A DNA stretch of 64,000 nucleotides. Source: an uncultured Allobaculum sp. GTDB taxonomy: Bacteria > Bacillota_I > Bacilli_A > Erysipelotrichales > Erysipelotrichaceae. The notes beneath the pieces were generated by a model. It searched no databases. It was given only the letters and a program-made list of their open reading frames with translations, and was not told the origin of the DNA. Positions 1 to 7,826 of this stretch are shown here, in pieces. The translations under genes were made by a program, and so were the position numbers. The DNA lies in NCBI GenBank assembly GCA_910577085.1, contig CAJTLE010000001.1, forward strand, positions 728 through 64,727, given 5' to 3'. Every line of letters begins with the position of its first letter. Position 1 is the first letter of the stretch.

Positions 1-12
1 CCTCCTGAACAT

Positions 13-1617
13 ATGTATAATTTGTTAAAACATTATTATACATATCCTTGTTTTTCAAGAGGGAAAGCGGGTTATAGCTTTATATGTAGCGATGTCTTCG
101 TTTTGATTAGCGCTTCCTGTGTATATAGTGGGGAAATCAGGTTACAAAGCCGTTACTATCTCGACAACAATCTGGCCCGCAAGATTCATACCCGCATCCG
201 TGATTACTCCATGATGGGTGAAAAGCCAGAAGCCGCCCGTTATTTTGGCGGTCTGTTTGATCAGGAGATGACCTCATTTTATAAAGATGCGGTCATGGAT
301 TCATATGGTCTGGATCTGAATGTGGATATCCTGACGGCGATTGAAAAAGAAGCCGAACTGCTTGGCCTTTACAAGGATGATCCGGATGAAATGCGTCTGA
401 TGGATCAGTATGTCCGCGATGTTATCCGCACGACCCGTGATCTGAGCTGTCCATTTATTGAAACGCCGCTTGGAGAAACCAGAGCACCGGTTTACAGCTG
501 CACCTATAACACTTCGCTCATCCCGCCAAAGGGCGACGATTCGCTGCGCAGCCGCCTGATTCAAAGTGAACTGGCCAATCTAGGCGGCACTCCGGATGAT
601 GACATTCCAGAAAACATGATCATGTTCTACAAGTCGTTCTATGGTCTGCGCGCCAATGAGCTCAGCAAGTTCGCTCCGCCGATTCATGACGAAACCCATG
701 ACCGGCCAGGCGGCGAGTACTTCAAGGCTTACTACGAACTCGTGGATGGTCTGTTCCCGATTCCAGGTAAGAGTTCTGGCATCAGCCCGCATCTGGATAA
801 ATGGTGGCATCTGGTTACCAAAATGCCGGATCTCGATGAAGGCAACCAGGACAAACTGTTCCATGAACAGTTTGCGGCTTTCTTCTGGGCCATGTTGATT
901 GGACTGATTGAACTCGATCAGATTTCGGATGAGCAGTGCCAGTACAAGATCAACCATGTGCGTCTGCGCTTAAACAATGATCCGCGCCTGAAATTCAACA
1001 GCAGCACACTGGTGGTTTCCAATGGAACACCATGCGACAAGCTGTATGAAGTTCTCGATGCGATCTCGATTTATCCAGCCCTGATTCACCGCATTCTGGA
1101 CTACGTCAACAATGAAATCGCCTATGACATCAATATGAATGGCGATCTGAAAGATCGTCTGTTATGGGCCAATCTGAAGAAATTTGAAATTGAAGAGCCG
1201 CTGATTGGTGTCAACCACGAAAAATCAACGTGCATTCTGGATCTGCCGCTGCTGCTGCGTAAGTCCAACAACACGAAGACTTACTTTGAAGAAGATTCCA
1301 TTGGTCTGTTGAAAGTGATTCTCGATGAGCTCAGACATTACTTCGAACTGAATATCAATGAAAAAGATGCGCTCAATGACTACATCGATTTCATCAAGAC
1401 AGAATATGCCCGCAGTCTTGTCAGCTGGGAAAAAGAAGAACAGGCCATTCCGGCAACGCTGACTGGTTCTTTATTTAACAGCTGGTATGAAACGCTGGCT
1501 CAGTACTTTGAAGATCTCGGCGCCCGTCGAGATGCCAGAGAGATCCGTTCGAAAGCGGAAGAACTCAAACAGAAGTACGACGCACAAAAGGGAAAAGGTG
1601 CGGATGCAAACGCCTAG
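13..1617 (+). CDS. Uncharacterised hydrophilic protein, component A of the four-gene operon. The 5' end is uncertain: the ORF is open to the window edge, and the first ATG after the AT-rich leader is at 211.
   Basis: A 534-codon ORF. Nt 1-140 are AT-rich with rare codons and a TATAAT at 16-21, and coding-like composition starts near 150. No Walker A or other family motif recognised. Gene B follows 30 nt downstream with its own SD. Confidence 0.6.
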   Translation: MYNLLKHYYTYPCFSRGKAGYSFICSDVFVLISASCVYSGEIRLQSRYYLDNNLARKIHTRIRDYSMMGEKPEAARYFGGLFDQEMTSFYKDAVMDSYGLDLNVDILTAIEKEAELLGLYKDDPDEMRLMDQYVRDVIRTTRDLSCPFIETPLGETRAPVYSCTYNTSLIPPKGDDSLRSRLIQSELANLGGTPDDDIPENMIMFYKSFYGLRANELSKFAPPIHDETHDRPGGEYFKAYYELVDGLFPIPGKSSGISPHLDKWWHLVTKMPDLDEGNQDKLFHEQFAAFFWAMLIGLIELDQISDEQCQYKINHVRLRLNNDPRLKFNSSTLVVSNGTPCDKLYEVLDAISIYPALIHRILDYVNNEIAYDINMNGDLKDRLLWANLKKFEIEEPLIGVNHEKSTCILDLPLLLRKSNNTKTYFEEDSIGLLKVILDELRHYFELNINEKDALNDYIDFIKTEYARSLVSWEKEEQAIPATLTGSLFNSWYETLAQYFEDLGARRDAREIRSKAEELKQKYDAQKGKGADANA

Positions 1618-1647: not shown

Positions 1648-3585
1648 ATGTTGAATGTTCTGATCATGAACCGCGCGACGCGTGATTCCTTTCTGGAGCA
1701 GCCGGTTCTATATGCCAACATCGTCAATCGGCCGGATATCGAAATCTGCGGCTGGATTGAGTCTGGATCCACGCTGGAAACGGCTCTGCCGGCGATCGAT
1801 GAACTGGTCGGGCCCCATCAGAAATGGCGGGCCATTGTGATCAGTTATGAAGACGATGGCGTCATGGAAAAATTCGCCACTGATCCGGAAAATCCATTTG
1901 ATTTTGACGGCAGTCCCTTTGCCTTATACCAGCAAAACCCCATTCCACTGGTCAGGCTGACGCATCTGCTTAAAGGTCTGCCGCCGCTGGAAAAGAGATA
2001 TGTCGAAGAACAGATTGTCGACAAGACCGGGATGCCAAAGATGGTGTTTACCGAGCAGCCGCCTGATGAAGCGGTGGCCATGCAATGGAAACAGTTATCC
2101 GACCTGTATGAAAACGATCTGCGTGAACCCGAGCAGATCGTTCTCATACGCCGCCGTCTGAAACCCAAAGACCCATCCAAACGCCGTCTGGAAAATATGT
2201 GGAGCCTGCCTGAAGAAATCGAAAGTTCCCGGTTTGCGGACCGCAATGGCTATGCGCCAGGATGCCGGTTTCTGTGTGTGGACTACACCCGCCAGGGAAA
2301 ATACCAGACGATTCAGGAAGCCTTTGAATTCTGGGTGAACAGTACGCTGATGGCCACGATTGAAGTGGATGGCAGCACCTTACAGGCTGGAAGACTGTAT
2401 CGTCTGGAGACGCGGATGGACAAAAATTCGCTGACCAGTCTGTTTCGGATTCTGGATGCCAGGCTGACTAAAGTACAGAGCAGTTATCTTGAACATTCTG
2501 CCCGGCTGAAAGAAAAGCAGGCCAGTCAGGAGGAACGACTGCCGGCTTATCAGGTGACGCTGCCTGAACTGCATCTGGAAACGGGATCGTTTGATGAAAG
2601 TGAAGAGATCTCCCTGAACTTTGCGATGTTTCCGGCCCGTAAGATGGACCCGATTCATGAGTGGCAGGAATATCTGACACTTGTCCAGCAGGAATATCAG
2701 GCGTCGATTAAAAAAATCAGCCGCTCGTTTGACCGGGCGGCAGAGAAATTCCATGACAAGATGCATGTCAGTGTCGAAAAGGTCGAACTGCTCAATCAAT
2801 GGCAGAAAGAAGATCTGGCCGAAGAACTCCAGAAAGAAAAGCTTGCCTGGATGGAAACAGGCGCCAGTCTGCCGGCCACGGGCATTGTCCGCAATCAGAA
2901 ACTTCAGAAAACGGATGATACGGTCCGCTGGCTGTTAGAAAACCAGGCTGATCGGCGCGATGTTGGTTTCGTAGAAGGCAGCCTGCTTGTCATTGGGCTG
3001 CTGGTGGGACTCATTGGATTTGTTTTTCCGATTCAACGAAACCAGCAGGCCTGGGCGATGATTTTCTGGATTGTGCTGACCCTGCTTGTCGTCTGTGGTG
3101 TGGGATGGCTGAGTCTGTTTTTGTGGAACCGTCAGGCAAGAAATCTGGCTGCTTCGTATCGTGATGAAATCCGACAGGCTGCAGCTGCGATGAACTCGGA
3201 TACCAATGGCTTTGCGAAATATTTAGAGCAGGCCGTTAATCTGGTTCGCGGCTCGCAATATCTGCGCCTGAGCGACACGAAAGCATTGATGGGCCAGGTG
3301 CAGGATCAGTCCACCCTCTTTAACAACCACCAACAAGTCGATCTGCTGACGGATCTGCAAAATAACCTGCATACCCTTCAGGCTGCCAACCATATCTTGT
3401 TGGAGGAAAATGAATTTCAAAGGGCATTGCCAGAACAAAACTGGGAAGATGTGGATGAAAAAAATCTGCTTTTGATTGAAGAAGATCCCGTCCAGGTGGA
3501 AGTCAATCACTCCGGATTTCATGTTGAAAGCCCATGGCCGTTTGTCAGCCGTCTGATTGTGGAACGGGAGGAGCTGTATGAATAA
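1648..3585 (+). CDS. Uncharacterised membrane protein with a central TM hairpin, component B
   Basis: ATG 1648 is preceded by an AAAGGGGA SD; 645 aa. Two adjacent hydrophobic helices (SLLVIGLLVGLIGFVF and AMIFWIVLTLLVVCGVGWLSLFLW, nt ~2970-3125) lie between a ~440-aa N-terminal and a ~150-aa C-terminal hydrophilic region. No catalytic motif recognised. Confidence 0.75.
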   Translation: MLNVLIMNRATRDSFLEQPVLYANIVNRPDIEICGWIESGSTLETALPAIDELVGPHQKWRAIVISYEDDGVMEKFATDPENPFDFDGSPFALYQQNPIPLVRLTHLLKGLPPLEKRYVEEQIVDKTGMPKMVFTEQPPDEAVAMQWKQLSDLYENDLREPEQIVLIRRRLKPKDPSKRRLENMWSLPEEIESSRFADRNGYAPGCRFLCVDYTRQGKYQTIQEAFEFWVNSTLMATIEVDGSTLQAGRLYRLETRMDKNSLTSLFRILDARLTKVQSSYLEHSARLKEKQASQEERLPAYQVTLPELHLETGSFDESEEISLNFAMFPARKMDPIHEWQEYLTLVQQEYQASIKKISRSFDRAAEKFHDKMHVSVEKVELLNQWQKEDLAEELQKEKLAWMETGASLPATGIVRNQKLQKTDDTVRWLLENQADRRDVGFVEGSLLVIGLLVGLIGFVFPIQRNQQAWAMIFWIVLTLLVVCGVGWLSLFLWNRQARNLAASYRDEIRQAAAAMNSDTNGFAKYLEQAVNLVRGSQYLRLSDTKALMGQVQDQSTLFNNHQQVDLLTDLQNNLHTLQAANHILLEENEFQRALPEQNWEDVDEKNLLLIEEDPVQVEVNHSGFHVESPWPFVSRLIVEREELYE

Positions 3586-6500
3586 TCTCCAGCAGCTTTT
3601 CCTTCATCTTCTCTCCTGTATCGCCGGCTTATATGCCCTGTGCGGACTTGGACAGCTGTATCCGCTCAAAAAGCCCAACCGTCCTTTGGAAGGGGTCATG
3701 GTACTGGTTGCCATCGGGTACAGTCTGATTGCTTCCTGGGTGCTGCTTGACCATGCCAGTCAGCTGGTGGCCATGCTTCCAGACTGGCTCTCTCACAGCG
3801 CCGGCATTGATCTGCCTGCACTGTCGACAATGTTTCTGTTTGGCTATGCGCTGGTGCGTTTTGCGGTCGATGGAATTTTGCGCGGCCTGCAGTCACATAA
3901 TGAGCTGTTGGCGTTTTGCGCCCTTGATTTTTATGAACAGGATCCCACCAGCCGCCAGTGGCATTTAAAACAGGGGCTGGCCGGATTTCAGCGGTTCATT
4001 CGATGGACGTACCTGGCCGCTCTTATTATGAGTGTTCTGTTTTTAACGATCGTCTGGACCTGGCCGAATGCCCAGATTGGCTGGGTCAGCTGGCTGCCAG
4101 TCGCTTTGTTGCCGATCTTGATGGCGATTAGAGTCTATCTGGATGGCCTGCCGCCCTTGCTGGATCCAAAACGAAACTACAGCGGATCTGGCATTGATGC
4201 GCTTGATATCTGCAACTATTATGGTCTGCGCTCTGTATATGAAGAAAACCTGCCGGAGCCCTTATTGACCTCGACCGCAGGCTGTGATCTGCGGCATCTG
4301 ACCAGTGCGATCAATCTGGTCGAAACCTGGCGCAAAAATGGCGGTCAGATCGAACGGATTGCCGCTGAGTATTATGCCCTGCATCAGCGTTTTGCCAAAA
4401 GCGATCCGGATTGTGCCGCGGCTTCGATTGATCTGCTCAAAGGCCGCAATGTAGTGTTCTTCAACCCGTTTTACCGGGATCTCAGTCTGTATCTGACGCT
4501 GCCACTGGCTTCGACTTTACTGGCCGGGGATCATGTCCTGATTCTTTGCGGCCGCAAAAGTCTGGAACAGCCGGCTAGAGAATGGATTGAAGAAGCAATT
4601 GGTTCGCAGACGCGCACGGAACACCTGTGGACGATACGACAGATTGATGATCAGGATGAACCTTGTCAGATCGGAATTATGACGTTTAACCAGATCTACA
4701 ATCATGCCGTTTTGAAAAACAATCAGGACTTCTTCCATAAAGTGCAGTTTGTCATTTTGCTTGAGCCATCTAAACTGATTGGAACCAGTCAGACGGCTCT
4801 GTCCATTATTGCCTCCAATCTCGGAGAGCCTGACCGCCGGCCGGTTTATGCGGTATGTGACCGTCAGACCACGGGTCTGATCGATACACTGTCGCATGTT
4901 TTAAAAAGTGAATTCATTGAAGCCTGTGCCAGTCCGGTTCCACATTGCCTGTACACCGCGATGTTCTGGGATGCCGATGGGGAATTCCGTCGTCAGGAGT
5001 TTTTTGATCACCAGAGCCGGTATCTTGGCAATGGTCTGGAACTGGCCGCTCTGGCCATCCGCTCCCAGGTGCCGCAGGTCAAATGGATTGGGGAAACCAA
5101 AGTTCCACTCAAAGATCTGCGCCGGATTGCCGGGCAGAGCTATCAGAACCTGTGCCGGTTCATGAACATCAAAGTCAGCCAGAATGCGTTGTTTGAGCGG
5201 GTCGATTTTGTCGACAGCCTCTGGCAGCCCGAAATGGAAAAACGGCCATTTCTGATTGTTGAAGATGAATTCAACAATCTCTTTGCGACGCTTCATCCGT
5301 ATCTGGCCAGAGGAACCGGACAGTCCTTTGTCCATATGCTTTCGGAAAACTATCTGCTTCGCGATTACATGAAGGAAAACCGGGAAGTGTTCGCAAGCAA
5401 TCCCCAGGCTGTTCCTTCCTTGATTCCGGATTATGCAAGAACCGAACGCAATACGATTTTGAAACTGCTTCTGTTGATGAACATGAAGCCAGTCGATGAA
5501 GAAACCATCGCCAGAGAACTGCGGATGACGGGCATTTTAAACCGGGATCTCGAAAACGAAATCAACCGGCTGGTCCGAAAGTATACGCCGGCCGATGAGA
5601 CGATCTTTACGATCAACCGCCGCAAAAAACTGGTGAACGAATTTACTCAGAAAGTGGTCGTTGAATATTCGATCAGTGATGAAGCTTTCAGCCAGTACTT
5701 CCAGTCCTCGTTGAAAAATGCCTATTTTGTCGTTGAAGATGAACTGGCCAACCGTGAGTATCTCGATGCCAGACTGTATGGGCAGATCGTTCAGGCCATT
5801 TTGCCAGGGCAGTTTCTGACGTATGGCGGCAAGTATTATCAGGTTCATTCCATCAACCCGATGGATGGCGTGATTCTCCGACGGGCTTCGGATCTGTATG
5901 AAGGCCGTGAGTACTATCGCCAGAAGCGGATTTATACCATTACCACCACTCCAGCCAATGAGACAGAAAGTCCGTCCAACGATGCGATAAATCCAACGGA
6001 TGAGATCACGGCGGAACTGGTCAGCTTCCAGCAGATCGGTTCCATTGAACTGCGTCAGGAACGCCACAATTTTTCAGTGGAAACCCCTGGGTATCTGCGG
6101 CTGCATGATAACCATGATCTTGAACATGGTGTGCCTTACACCTTCCAGCAGGAAGGCCGACAGGAGATTTTCAACCGCTCGTATTTAAGTAAGACACTGT
6201 TACGGGTGAAGATGCCGGAAATGGATACACAGGATGCTCTGACCTTCTGTGTCCTGCTCAATGAACTGTTTCGCAGTATCTATCCGGAAAACTGGCCATA
6301 TCTTTGCGCAGCAGCAGTTTATGATCCACAGGATGTCGATCCATGGATGAGCTATCTGGTTCCTCAGGTCAAGGGAAACTTTGAAGAGGGCGAAGTGCTG
6401 ATCATTGAAGACAGTGAAATGGATCTGGGACTGATTGATTCATTCTGCCGAAATTTTGACAGCCTGATGGGCATTGTCTATGACTATCTGGACTGGCTGG

Positions 6501-6835
6501 AAAATCCACAGGTGGAAAGCAGAGAAGATACAATCTATGAAGTGGATTTCGATGCGTTGATTGAAGAGATCAGGGAACGTAAAAAAGAAGAAGCCAAAAA
6601 GAAAAGCTTTTTCGCCCGCTGGAGAGCCAGACATTCCAAAAAGGACAAAGACAAGCCAGATCAAGCGGATTCAAATTCCGATGATGGTCCAGGCCATAGT
6701 GCAGATTCAAAACCTGACCAGCCAAAAGAAGAGGACACTTCGGCCTCTGATGGCAAGACCACACAATCCAAAACGGAACAACTAGTCAAATTTACAAGAC
6801 CCGTTCCGGATGATTTAAATCAGCCAAATTCTTGA
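3578..6835 (+). CDS. Uncharacterised 1085-aa polytopic membrane protein with a large cytoplasmic body (possible degenerate helicase-like core) and a disordered charged tail, component C
   Basis: The track ORF is 3557-6835. ATG 3578 is preferred because GGAGG lies ~8 nt upstream and the start overlaps the gene B stop (ATGAATAA). About 5 hydrophobic helices occur in the first ~190 aa. No GxxxxGK[ST] anywhere. The C-terminal ~95 aa are rich in K/E/D/S. Confidence 0.75.
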   Translation: MNNLQQLFLHLLSCIAGLYALCGLGQLYPLKKPNRPLEGVMVLVAIGYSLIASWVLLDHASQLVAMLPDWLSHSAGIDLPALSTMFLFGYALVRFAVDGILRGLQSHNELLAFCALDFYEQDPTSRQWHLKQGLAGFQRFIRWTYLAALIMSVLFLTIVWTWPNAQIGWVSWLPVALLPILMAIRVYLDGLPPLLDPKRNYSGSGIDALDICNYYGLRSVYEENLPEPLLTSTAGCDLRHLTSAINLVETWRKNGGQIERIAAEYYALHQRFAKSDPDCAAASIDLLKGRNVVFFNPFYRDLSLYLTLPLASTLLAGDHVLILCGRKSLEQPAREWIEEAIGSQTRTEHLWTIRQIDDQDEPCQIGIMTFNQIYNHAVLKNNQDFFHKVQFVILLEPSKLIGTSQTALSIIASNLGEPDRRPVYAVCDRQTTGLIDTLSHVLKSEFIEACASPVPHCLYTAMFWDADGEFRRQEFFDHQSRYLGNGLELAALAIRSQVPQVKWIGETKVPLKDLRRIAGQSYQNLCRFMNIKVSQNALFERVDFVDSLWQPEMEKRPFLIVEDEFNNLFATLHPYLARGTGQSFVHMLSENYLLRDYMKENREVFASNPQAVPSLIPDYARTERNTILKLLLLMNMKPVDEETIARELRMTGILNRDLENEINRLVRKYTPADETIFTINRRKKLVNEFTQKVVVEYSISDEAFSQYFQSSLKNAYFVVEDELANREYLDARLYGQIVQAILPGQFLTYGGKYYQVHSINPMDGVILRRASDLYEGREYYRQKRIYTITTTPANETESPSNDAINPTDEITAELVSFQQIGSIELRQERHNFSVETPGYLRLHDNHDLEHGVPYTFQQEGRQEIFNRSYLSKTLLRVKMPEMDTQDALTFCVLLNELFRSIYPENWPYLCAAAVYDPQDVDPWMSYLVPQVKGNFEEGEVLIIEDSEMDLGLIDSFCRNFDSLMGIVYDYLDWLENPQVESREDTIYEVDFDALIEEIRERKKEEAKKKSFFARWRARHSKKDKDKPDQADSNSDDGPGHSADSKPDQPKEEDTSASDGKTTQSKTEQLVKFTRPVPDDLNQPNS

Positions 6836-6902
6836 GGCAGATTCGTTATAAGCAAAACCAACAACACCAGTCAGCAGCACAACAGGAAAGGATGGGGTAG
6901 AG

Positions 6903-7826
6903 ATGAACGAGGAAGAAAAGACACCATTTGATACCACTGCCTATCTGCGCTTTGGAAAAGATCAATTGCCTGACTATCTTCGACCTGGAAAGCTTCGTGA
7001 ATTTCTGGAAGACAACGGCTATGCCGGCAATCCGTTAACCAAAGCCCGCAAAGCCCCGCAGACCGTTTTCAAGGATCTTGAAATGACGGACGAAAAAGGC
7101 CAGCCGATTCTCGCTTCTTCCTGTGATTTCTGCGGCCAGCGCATCAATGGTGTTTCTTACCAGCAGTTAGCCGATGGCCGGATCCGCTGCAATGAGTGTG
7201 CTTCTACAGCCATTGAAAACCTTGAAGAATTCAAACTGCTCTTTGAACAGTGCATCCAGCTGATGCAGGATTTCTATCAGGTGACTTTCCAGGTTTCCCT
7301 CGATATCCGGACGACAGACAGCGATGAAATTGCCCGCCGGACCGGAATGAAAGGACCGGAAGGAATGGGCAAAAAAGTAAGAGTGCTTGGCTTTGCGCAG
7401 AGTCAGAATGGCAAACATACGGTCGTTATTGAAAATGGCAGCCCAAGACTGGCTTCGATTGATACGATCGTCCATGAAATGACCCACATCTGGCAATCCA
7501 TCTCCTGGAATGAAGCAGAGTTTGAGCGGCTGTACCACATGGGAAACAAGAAGAAAAATGCACTGGCCAGGCTGCTCGTGCGTGAAGGCATGGCCGTCTG
7601 GTCGGCCCTTCAGTTTCTTTACCTGATTGGAGAGACAAGTTATGCGTCTCGTCAGGAAGCTCTGATGGAAAATCGCAAAGATGAATATGGCCTTGGTTTT
7701 CTGTTGTTTCGCGAGCAGTTTCCTTTGATCCGAACGACTGATTTCCTGTATCGGACACCATTTACCGTCTTTCCGCCGATTCCACCAGAAACGATCCGAC
7801 AGATTGTCAACCATATCTTTGCCTGA
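6903..7826 (+). CDS. Zinc-ribbon plus HExxH (gluzincin/MA-clan-like) metallopeptidase, component D
   Basis: ATG 6903 follows a GGAAAGGATGGGG SD. CDFC-x18-CNEC (C74, C77, C96, C99). HEMTH at residues 191-195 (nt ~7473), with Glu 33 residues downstream in the REGMAVW context typical of HExxH...EGxAxW/Y peptidases. Confidence 0.7.
   Translation: MNEEEKTPFDTTAYLRFGKDQLPDYLRPGKLREFLEDNGYAGNPLTKARKAPQTVFKDLEMTDEKGQPILASSCDFCGQRINGVSYQQLADGRIRCNECASTAIENLEEFKLLFEQCIQLMQDFYQVTFQVSLDIRTTDSDEIARRTGMKGPEGMGKKVRVLGFAQSQNGKHTVVIENGSPRLASIDTIVHEMTHIWQSISWNEAEFERLYHMGNKKKNALARLLVREGMAVWSALQFLYLIGETSYASRQEALMENRKDEYGLGFLLFREQFPLIRTTDFLYRTPFTVFPPIPPETIRQIVNHIFA

Follow-up and report, generated by a model that had tools for sequence, protein, structure and literature searches.

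A membrane-anchored protein of FtsZl1-vWA operons with a predicted MrfA/YprA-type helicase fold and degenerate ATPase motifs

Operons that pair a tubulin-like protein of the FtsZl1 family with a vWA-containing protein have been known since 2010, when Makarova and Koonin (Biol Direct 5:33) defined the family and these operons and proposed that they encode a membrane-remodelling machine. Most of the accessory genes had no recognizable domains, and the large accessory proteins were listed without any. Our literature searches on FtsZl1 and on tubulin-like defence systems found no functional study. In Ruminococcus lactaris (Additional file 5 of that paper) the genes are B13, vWA, FtsZl1, B5 (678 amino acids, aa) and B12 (1418 aa, RUMLAC_01526). 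Here we describe an operon of this kind in a 64,000-nucleotide (nt) stretch of DNA from an uncultured Allobaculum sp. (contig CAJTLE010000001.1), referred to below as the window, and in particular one of its products, protein C. Judged from its predicted structure, the body of C is very probably an MrfA/YprA-type helicase fold.

MrfA of Bacillus subtilis is a soluble, active 3'-5' DNA helicase with a GK[ST] motif, a DELH motif and a four-cysteine zinc site. Its published domain map consists of NTR (aa 1-39), RecA1 (40-250), RecA2 (251-423), WH (424-490), OB (491-556), CON (557-630) and MZB (631-749), and the canopy formed by OB, CON and MZB rolls over the RecA domains and entraps a single strand. 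According to the accessible part of a recent preprint (Bell et al. 2025, bioRxiv 10.1101/2025.09.15.676423), YprA-family helicases occur in the defence systems DISARM (as DrmA/DrmB), Dpd, Druantia, ARMADA, BRIGADE and TALON. Their core and OB-CON-DUF1998 canopy are also those predicted for C. In the same account, genes of the family can be split (DrmA/DrmB) and the four cysteines can be lost (Dpd), the latter as in C; family members are typically tied to an enzymatic effector, which is a nuclease there and a putative peptidase in the case of C. The accessible part contains no member that is ATPase-dead, membrane-anchored or linked to a tubulin or vWA protein; tubulin, FtsZ, vWA and transmembrane are absent from it, and "inactivated" is used only of nuclease, GTPase and RNase H domains.

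Operons that contain tubulin, coiled-coil and vWA proteins together with variable effectors have also been described by Kaur, Burroughs, Iyer and Aravind (2020, eLife 9:e52696), who interpreted the tubulin-vWA-GTPase operons of Firmicutes as conflict systems. As far as the available portion of that article goes, inactive versions of enzymes are predicted sensors in these systems, which is a parallel to C. Those systems are defined there by GAP1-N2 or DO-type GTPases, none of which is among the conserved clusters that flank C, and that portion of the article makes no mention of a helicase-like component.

The evidence for a helicase fold comes from an AlphaFold2 model of C computed on a 90-sequence alignment. 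The model has a mean predicted local distance difference test score (pLDDT) of 82.3 and a predicted template modelling score of 0.72, and all five models have a pLDDT of 80-82. Over most of aa 290-975 the pLDDT is 80-95, with dips at 471-490, 721-730, 796-808 and 860-862. An earlier, sequence-only reading of this DNA had suspected a helicase-like core in C that might be ATPase-dead, and had recommended structure prediction followed by a Foldseek search for RecA-like folds. In that search the model matched superfamily 2 (SF2) helicases only, in two independent libraries. There were 177 matches in the PDB at E<=1e-3, and the 50 listed were all helicases or helicase-containing assemblies. In the viral library BFVD there were 62 at the same threshold, and the named ones among the 50 listed were helicases or viral replicase polyproteins. 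Chains of MrfA, which is a DUF1998 helicase, took ranks 1-4 in the PDB (E 8.6e-20 to 1.2e-10), with 768-842 aligned columns (830 at the best E of 8.6e-20) and target-normalised TM-scores of 0.53-0.58. Hel308, Hjm, PolQ, Brr2, Lhr, Mtr4 and RecQ followed, with E values of 1e-8 to 1e-5 over approximately 500-600 columns.

Rather than a fold without RecA-like domains, the model has two tandem RecA-like alpha/beta domains, the feature by which SF2 helicases are recognized. A WH, OB, CON and MZB array is predicted after RecA2 and an NTR strand in front, and MrfA aligned over its whole chain. From the N-terminal side, the predicted order is a helix (206-224) and a strand (229-236), an alpha/beta domain (291-452), a second alpha/beta domain (453-612), a three-helix module with a hairpin (613-700), a beta-barrel (701-795), long antiparallel strands (809-880) and a final alpha/beta domain (881-978). 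These elements are colinear with the seven MrfA modules. The part of C that had been called helicase-domain-1-like is indeed RecA1-like in the model, but that description was too narrow, as the predicted core comprises all seven MrfA/YprA modules.

The positions at which a helicase of this type would bind and hydrolyse nucleoside triphosphates (NTPs) are degenerate in C. The three segments that the sequence-only reading had proposed for motifs I/Ia, Ib and II are present as quoted (GDHVLILCGRKSLEQPAREW at aa 317-336, nt 4526-4585; IGIMTFNQIY at aa 365-374, nt 4670-4699; QFVILLEPSKL at aa 390-400, nt 4745-4777), and they sit at those motifs' places in the predicted strand-loop-helix pattern. 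At motif I, strand 319-324 (VLILCG) is followed by only G325-R326 and then by helix 327-345. The loop of two residues is about four too short for a P-loop, and Arg stands in place of Lys. The segment IGIMTFNQIY forms a strand and the start of a helix where motif Ib (TPE-like) sits. At the DExH site, strand 389-395 ends in E396-P397-S398, with T403 and Q405 following, and at the SAT site (motif III) strand 423-427 ends in C-D-R (D428-R429), followed by G433, D436, S439 and H440. The motif VI region reads Y592-L-L-R595-D-Y-M, with no GRxGR. A pattern scan agreed that GxxxxGK[ST] does not occur in the 1085 aa of C, and neither does [AG]xxxxGK[ST]; the sole GKT, at aa 1059, is inside the disordered tail. 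A four-cysteine zinc site is likewise missing from the DUF1998-like part, where the only column of aa 700-985 with at least 50% Cys is C891 (71%).

The same substitutions are found throughout the family. In 232 members aligned with a hidden Markov model (HMM), the P-loop position reads G (in 209), R (199), x, S; the Walker B position reads E (205), P (217), S (224), with a hydrophobic residue before the E; and the motif III position reads D (230) followed by R or K. R595 is Arg in 208 members and Lys in 22. We found no GK[ST] within 60 aa after the anchor NPF[YF][RK][DNE] in any of the 142 of the 232 members that carry this anchor, and no DExx or acidic pair at the Walker B position in any of the 232. 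To the question raised earlier, whether homologues keep Walker A or B, the answer is that none of these members has either at those positions. Because GRxS, EPS and DR replace motifs I, II and III family-wide, the whole family looks ATPase-dead, that is, from its sequences it looks unable to carry out canonical NTP hydrolysis. We consider it likely that C has lost the canonical ATPase.

Loss of the motifs has not been accompanied by loss of conservation, and the segments singled out in the sequence-only reading are among the best conserved parts of C. In both the 90 homologues and the 232 HMM-aligned members, the near-invariant residues are G325, R326, S328, G366, E396, P397, S398, T403 and Q405; D428, R429, G433, D436, S439, H440, E562, D563 and E564; and Y592, R595, Y597, M598, E944, D945, S946, D949 and G951. 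Over the 90 sequences, 31 columns are invariant. Since the altered cleft residues are almost invariant, the cleft appears to be still under strong purifying selection.

Three strands of the type hhhEDE had also been noticed. LIVEDEF (from aa 559), FVVEDEL (aa 717) and LIIEDSE (aa 941) are present and conserved, but each belongs to a different domain (RecA2, OB and MZB-like, respectively), and on that ground we ruled out that they are repeats of one unit. The conserved strands ending in ED[ES] occupy positions 5252-5272, 5726-5746 and 6398-6418 of the window. The pattern hhhED[SE] occurs three times in C versus 0.018 expected from 20,000 shuffles, for a pattern picked after looking at the data. 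The acidic tips of these strands could, to give one example, meet in three dimensions as a metal-binding or basic-peptide-binding site.

Protein C is almost certainly a fixed component, the fourth gene, of the FtsZl1-vWA operon. In three neighbourhoods of C homologues, C was preceded by vWA, a 1150-1190-aa protein with Tubulin_2 (PF13809) and B, in that order. We built an HMM for each operon protein and scanned 83 loci (numbered below with the prefix L). Of the 83, 66 have vWA, the tubulin-like gene, B, C and D in this order on one strand, and among the 56 with 8.3 kb or more of DNA upstream of C, all but one (55) do; the closest relative shows the same five-gene order. L081, from a Peptococcaceae metagenome-assembled genome, is the only locus with ample upstream DNA (approximately 6.9 kb before B) and no vWA or tubulin HMM match; its operon may have diverged or been rearranged. 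Upstream of vWA, the scanned loci have no conserved gene. A membrane-tethered pseudo-helicase had been expected to be unusual. The architecture is supported, but C is no orphan; it is a fixed operon gene, normally fused to a putative zincin.

That fusion is seen in most homologues of C, which are approximately 1440 aa long. Their extra part consists of an acidic variable linker, a Zn-ribbon (CDFCG…DGRxRCNDC) and an HExxH…EGMA domain, and is co-linear with the separate open reading frame (ORF) D of the window. The additional 350 or so residues were considered as a novel domain, which the alignment ruled out, as they are D plus the linker. A single ORF encodes both C and D in 72 of 79 loci; they are split in 7 (L003, L004, L005, L028, L073, L074 and L080), which are the window's clade and a few other lineages. 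The break, at 6836-6902 of the window, lies within the acidic linker of variable sequence. Here C and D are read in different frames and are 67 nt apart, and D is preceded by a ribosome-binding site of its own. D contains HEMTH and EGMA, both conserved in the family; matches of D to the Pfam models DUF6782, DUF2268 and BSP are weak and below the curated cut-offs.

By context and architecture, C plus D corresponds to family B12 of Makarova and Koonin. Both have the same place in the gene order, and both make up a large membrane-associated protein that ends in a Zn finger and a zincin. The annotation of B12 covers the ends of the protein only; the central body of approximately 800 aa is undescribed, and a helicase-like body is not mentioned. 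Unlike B12, the window's version is split into C and D.

The family is large. We found 89 clear homologues of C in a database of 5.8 billion proteins, and a profile of the trimmed core gave 780 clusters (at 50% identity) at E<=1e-3, and 422 at E<=1e-30, among 1.84 billion representatives. A scan of one genome per species yielded 114 relatives, from which 80 loci were kept, almost entirely from gut and rumen Firmicutes. They include Lachnospiraceae, Oscillospiraceae, Acutalibacteraceae, Butyrivibrio, Dorea, Mediterraneibacter, Erysipelotrichales and Peptococcaceae. The closest relative, at 94% identity, is in Erysipelotrichaceae bacterium 51-3.

The open frame of C (1085 aa) could begin at 3557 or 3578. 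The ATG at 3578 follows a ribosome-binding site, GGGAGGAG, and overlaps the stop of gene B (context TATGAATAA), and on both grounds the 1085-aa reading appears to be right. The overlap also indicates that B and C are translationally coupled. Hydropathy gives hydrophobic windows at aa 6-26, 37-61, 140-165 and 166-192, and the structure model adds a helix at 78-103, for about five membrane helices within aa 1-195. This bears out the five or so N-terminal hydrophobic helices of the sequence-only reading. The charges of the loops (the loop at aa 27-36 is rich in Lys and Arg) fit an N-out, C-in topology. Domain boundaries (Table 1) were read off the secondary structure of the model.

Table 1. Operon genes in the window and predicted domains of protein C
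Feature	Position (nt)	Strand	Description	Evidence
FtsZl1 (Tubulin_2) gene	1..1617	+	3' part	Pfam Tubulin_2 on the full-length L003 protein
Protein B	1648..3585	+	645 aa; "B5" position of Makarova and Koonin	
Protein C	3578..6835	+	Membrane anchor, then predicted MrfA/YprA-like helicase body lacking ATPase motifs, then charged tail	
C, membrane domain	3578..4162	+	aa 1-195; polytopic, about 5 helices	
C, NTR position	4190..4447	+	aa 205-290; amphipathic helix and beta-strand (229-236) at the MrfA NTR position, then helical insert; approximate boundaries	
C, RecA1-like domain	4448..4933	+	aa 291-452; NPFYRD at 296-301; degenerate motifs I, II and III	
C, RecA2-like domain	4934..5413	+	aa 453-612; LIVEDEF strand (E562, D563, E564), SENYLLRDYM (Y592, R595, Y597)	
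C, winged-helix-like module	5414..5677	+	aa 613-700; three helices and beta-hairpin	
C, OB-like beta-barrel	5678..5962	+	aa 701-795; FVVEDEL; Arg/Tyr-rich LPGQF..GKYY..LRRASD..YYRQxRxY	
C, CON-like beta-sheet	6002..6217	+	aa 809-880; long, antiparallel	
C, MZB/DUF1998-like domain	6218..6511	+	aa 881-978; without four-cysteine zinc site; holds LIIEDSEMDLGL; net charge -17	
C, tail	6512..6835	+	aa 979-1085; basic helix (991-1022), then acidic low-confidence stretch	
Protein D	6903..7826	+	307 aa; Zn-ribbon (CDFCG...DGRIRCNEC) and putative HExxH zincin (HEMTH...EGMA)	

The C tail matches in position the linker between C and the peptidase in fused homologues. Between the very acidic MZB-like domain and the acidic disordered tail is a strongly basic predicted helix, EEIRERKKEEAKKKSFFARWRARHSKKDKDK (aa 991-1022, window 6548-6643), in which the pattern KK…R…R…LF is conserved across the family. 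This helix could be a membrane-binding or autoinhibitory element.

MrfA is the best structural match to C and has the same order of seven modules. C differs from MrfA in lacking GK[ST], DELH and the zinc cysteines, in its membrane domain of 195 aa and tethered putative zincin, and in having no sequence-profile match. Because the defining motifs are not found in C, it should not be counted as a YprA helicase in the enzymatic sense and is best described as a helicase-derived, non-motor variant. With somewhat better than even confidence, we propose that C derives from a YprA/MrfA-type (DUF1998) SF2 helicase, is anchored in the membrane and acts as a non-motor clamp or sensor that controls a peptidase. 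The shortened P-loop, the E-P-S at Walker B and the loss of the DUF1998 cysteines argue that C most likely cannot hydrolyse NTPs.

We postulate that C sits in the membrane, its synthesis coupled to that of B, with a long charged linker joining its other end to the peptidase, and that the helicase-derived clamp could be a static module that binds or senses a linear ligand, either single-stranded nucleic acid or a partner protein. Without an ATPase, C might keep a ligand-dependent open/closed switch but not translocation. Movement of the canopy, driven by the ligand, could then gate the tethered peptidase inside an assembly organized by the tubulin-like GTPase and the vWA protein, and the downstream genes would be optional effectors. 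The role as a sensor that gates the peptidase is drawn by analogy, and we offer it tentatively, as a possible rather than a probable function.

Several observations weigh against this proposal. We found no match to C in Pfam, NCBIfam, PADLOC or PHROGs; phmmer and the 90-sequence profile gave only low-complexity matches, and no helicase, among PDB sequences; and none of the Pfam models DEAD, Helicase_C and DUF1998 matched C or 25 diverse members at E<=0.1. The case for homology between C and helicases comes entirely from predicted structure. The best 150 of the 780 cluster representatives were listed, and ATPase-competent relatives are possible among the weak matches. The core of C is acidic (net charge -33, isoelectric point 5.0; family median -28), and acidity this strong does not favour generic nucleic-acid binding. 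PADLOC-DB 2.0 has no match for the C-terminal part of FtsZl1, full-length tubulin, vWA, B, C or D, and the genes that follow D in the window are housekeeping genes.

Since the core is so acidic, a pure protein-scaffold role is a serious rival, even if on balance we think it unlikely. The body of C would then be a structural adaptor that tethers or nucleates FtsZl1 filaments and vWA at the membrane for remodelling and does not bind nucleic acid. This would agree with the reading of Makarova and Koonin, with the strict gene order with the tubulin-like and vWA genes (in all but one of the loci with sufficient upstream DNA), with the acidic core and with the housekeeping neighbours in the window. 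A pure adaptor leaves unexplained why a seven-module, DNA-clamping architecture, the cleft residues and an obligatory peptidase have been kept. The variable genes downstream (FtsK-like, transglutaminase-like and RyR/TrkA), which look like interchangeable effectors, also argue against it.

We are doubtful that the operon of this genome is a decaying remnant in which C is present but unused. The first 139 nt of the window are unlike the FtsZl1 gene of the relatives, and homology to that gene begins only at codon 682 of 1172. Set against this, the ORFs of B, C and D are intact and have ribosome-binding sites, and B is 99% and C 90-94% identical to relatives with complete operons.

It is improbable that C is still an NTPase or translocase, for example a membrane-bound motor on DNA, that works through a non-canonical site in which R326 and S328 stand in for Lys and Thr and E396 is the catalytic base. 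G325, R326, S328, E396, S398, Q405, D428 and R595 are nearly invariant, so the cleft is functional in some sense, and R595 could be a remnant of the motif VI finger. The predicted geometry tells against such a motor, as the strand ends at C324 and the next helix begins at 327, which leaves two residues for a loop that in P-loop NTPases needs about 8. None of the 232 members has the Lys or the Walker B Asp, and about half of the systems have a separate, intact FtsK-type ATPase downstream. Least probable by far is that the fold match is a model artefact or convergence with no helicase ancestry. In favour of this reading, no sequence method links C to helicases, and the Foldseek alignments have identities of approximately 10% and root-mean-square deviations of approximately 10 Å. 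Against it, an E of 8.6e-20 over 830 columns to one multi-domain protein, all four MrfA entries at the top, the 177 PDB and 62 BFVD matches with helicases or helicase-containing assemblies in all 50 PDB rows listed, the agreement of five models and the degenerate motifs at canonical strand ends are hard to reconcile with an accident.

The gene downstream of C and D varies among the loci. It is most often an FtsK/SpoIIIE-type ATPase of approximately 1175 aa with an intact Walker A (GASRSGKS; 33 of 64 loci, e.g., L001:14270-17785), and otherwise a RyR/TrkA_N protein (12 loci, e.g., L007:14129-16192) or a transglutaminase-core protein (11 loci, e.g., L036:5341-6819). None of these three is in the window. 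The FtsK/SpoIIIE gene in L001 prompted a comparison with type VII secretion systems, which we rejected because the gene is in only about half of the loci and absent here. This optional ATPase is the only operon-associated product with a PADLOC match, and it matches weakly (mad8 and SspH ATPase domains).

We also considered that the vWA/FtsZl1/B/C-D operon could be an undescribed immune or conflict system, a speculation to which we give little weight. The helicase "fossil" in C would sense phage or plasmid single-stranded DNA at the membrane, and capture by the canopy would release or activate the zincin. The zincin might in turn set off either the tubulin-like GTPase together with the vWA assembly and membrane protein B, or the optional effectors (FtsK-like, transglutaminase or RyR). 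If so, nucleic-acid sensing would be coupled to a cytoskeletal polymer.

The helicase-derived, non-motor reading of C connects an operon of cytoskeletal type with helicases now known chiefly for roles in DNA repair and anti-phage defence, and would be a further example, among few so far, of a helicase fold put to use as a non-motor module. Current profile libraries fail to detect this family, which comprises at least 780 sequence clusters. C also provides experimental handles, namely the binding of nucleic acids by its core, the cleft residues G-R-x-S and E-P-S, the substrates of the peptidase and the response to phage.

In the model of protein B, which is encoded upstream of C, an alpha/beta domain at the N-terminus is followed by a long helical hairpin whose tip is hydrophobic and by a small beta-sheet at the C-terminus. 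The two putative transmembrane segments of B (approximately aa 445-515) are the tip of this very long predicted hairpin (helices 413-459 and 468-580). Two database searches returned 7 homologues of B; the model, made from 8 sequences, has a pLDDT of 67, and Foldseek found no significant match for it (best E 0.02 with GBP1, approximately 0.2-0.3 with the alpha-pore-forming toxins AhlB and YaxB). The shape of the hairpin in this model recalls dynamin-like/GBP stalks or ClyA-type alpha-pore-forming toxins. A SLATT assignment for B (E 0.0026, far below the cut-off) was unsubstantiated. The C-terminus of B (NHSG…ESPWPF…IEREELYE) is conserved.

The first ORF of the window encodes the C-terminal 491 aa of a tubulin-like protein, with 98% identity to aa 682-1172 of the 1172-aa L003 protein. 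Homology to the FtsZl1 gene starts abruptly at approximately nt 140, and the AT-rich nt 1-139 have no match to the FtsZl1 gene of the closest relatives, L003 and L004. Rfam gave no match in nt 1-139, and the 41-nt sequence at the end occurs nowhere else in the window. It seems that the FtsZl1 gene is interrupted or truncated here, by insertion, rearrangement or an assembly join. Over the whole window, no Rfam family reached its gathering score.

In this genome no defence island or mobile element is evident around the operon. The remainder of the window (8340-64000) encodes a sulfite/nitrite reductase, an iron-siderophore ABC transporter, siroheme synthase, MnmA, a RecD2/YrrC helicase and AlaRS, as well as LepA, PNPase, an M20 peptidase, a Mur ligase (MurC) and NusA.

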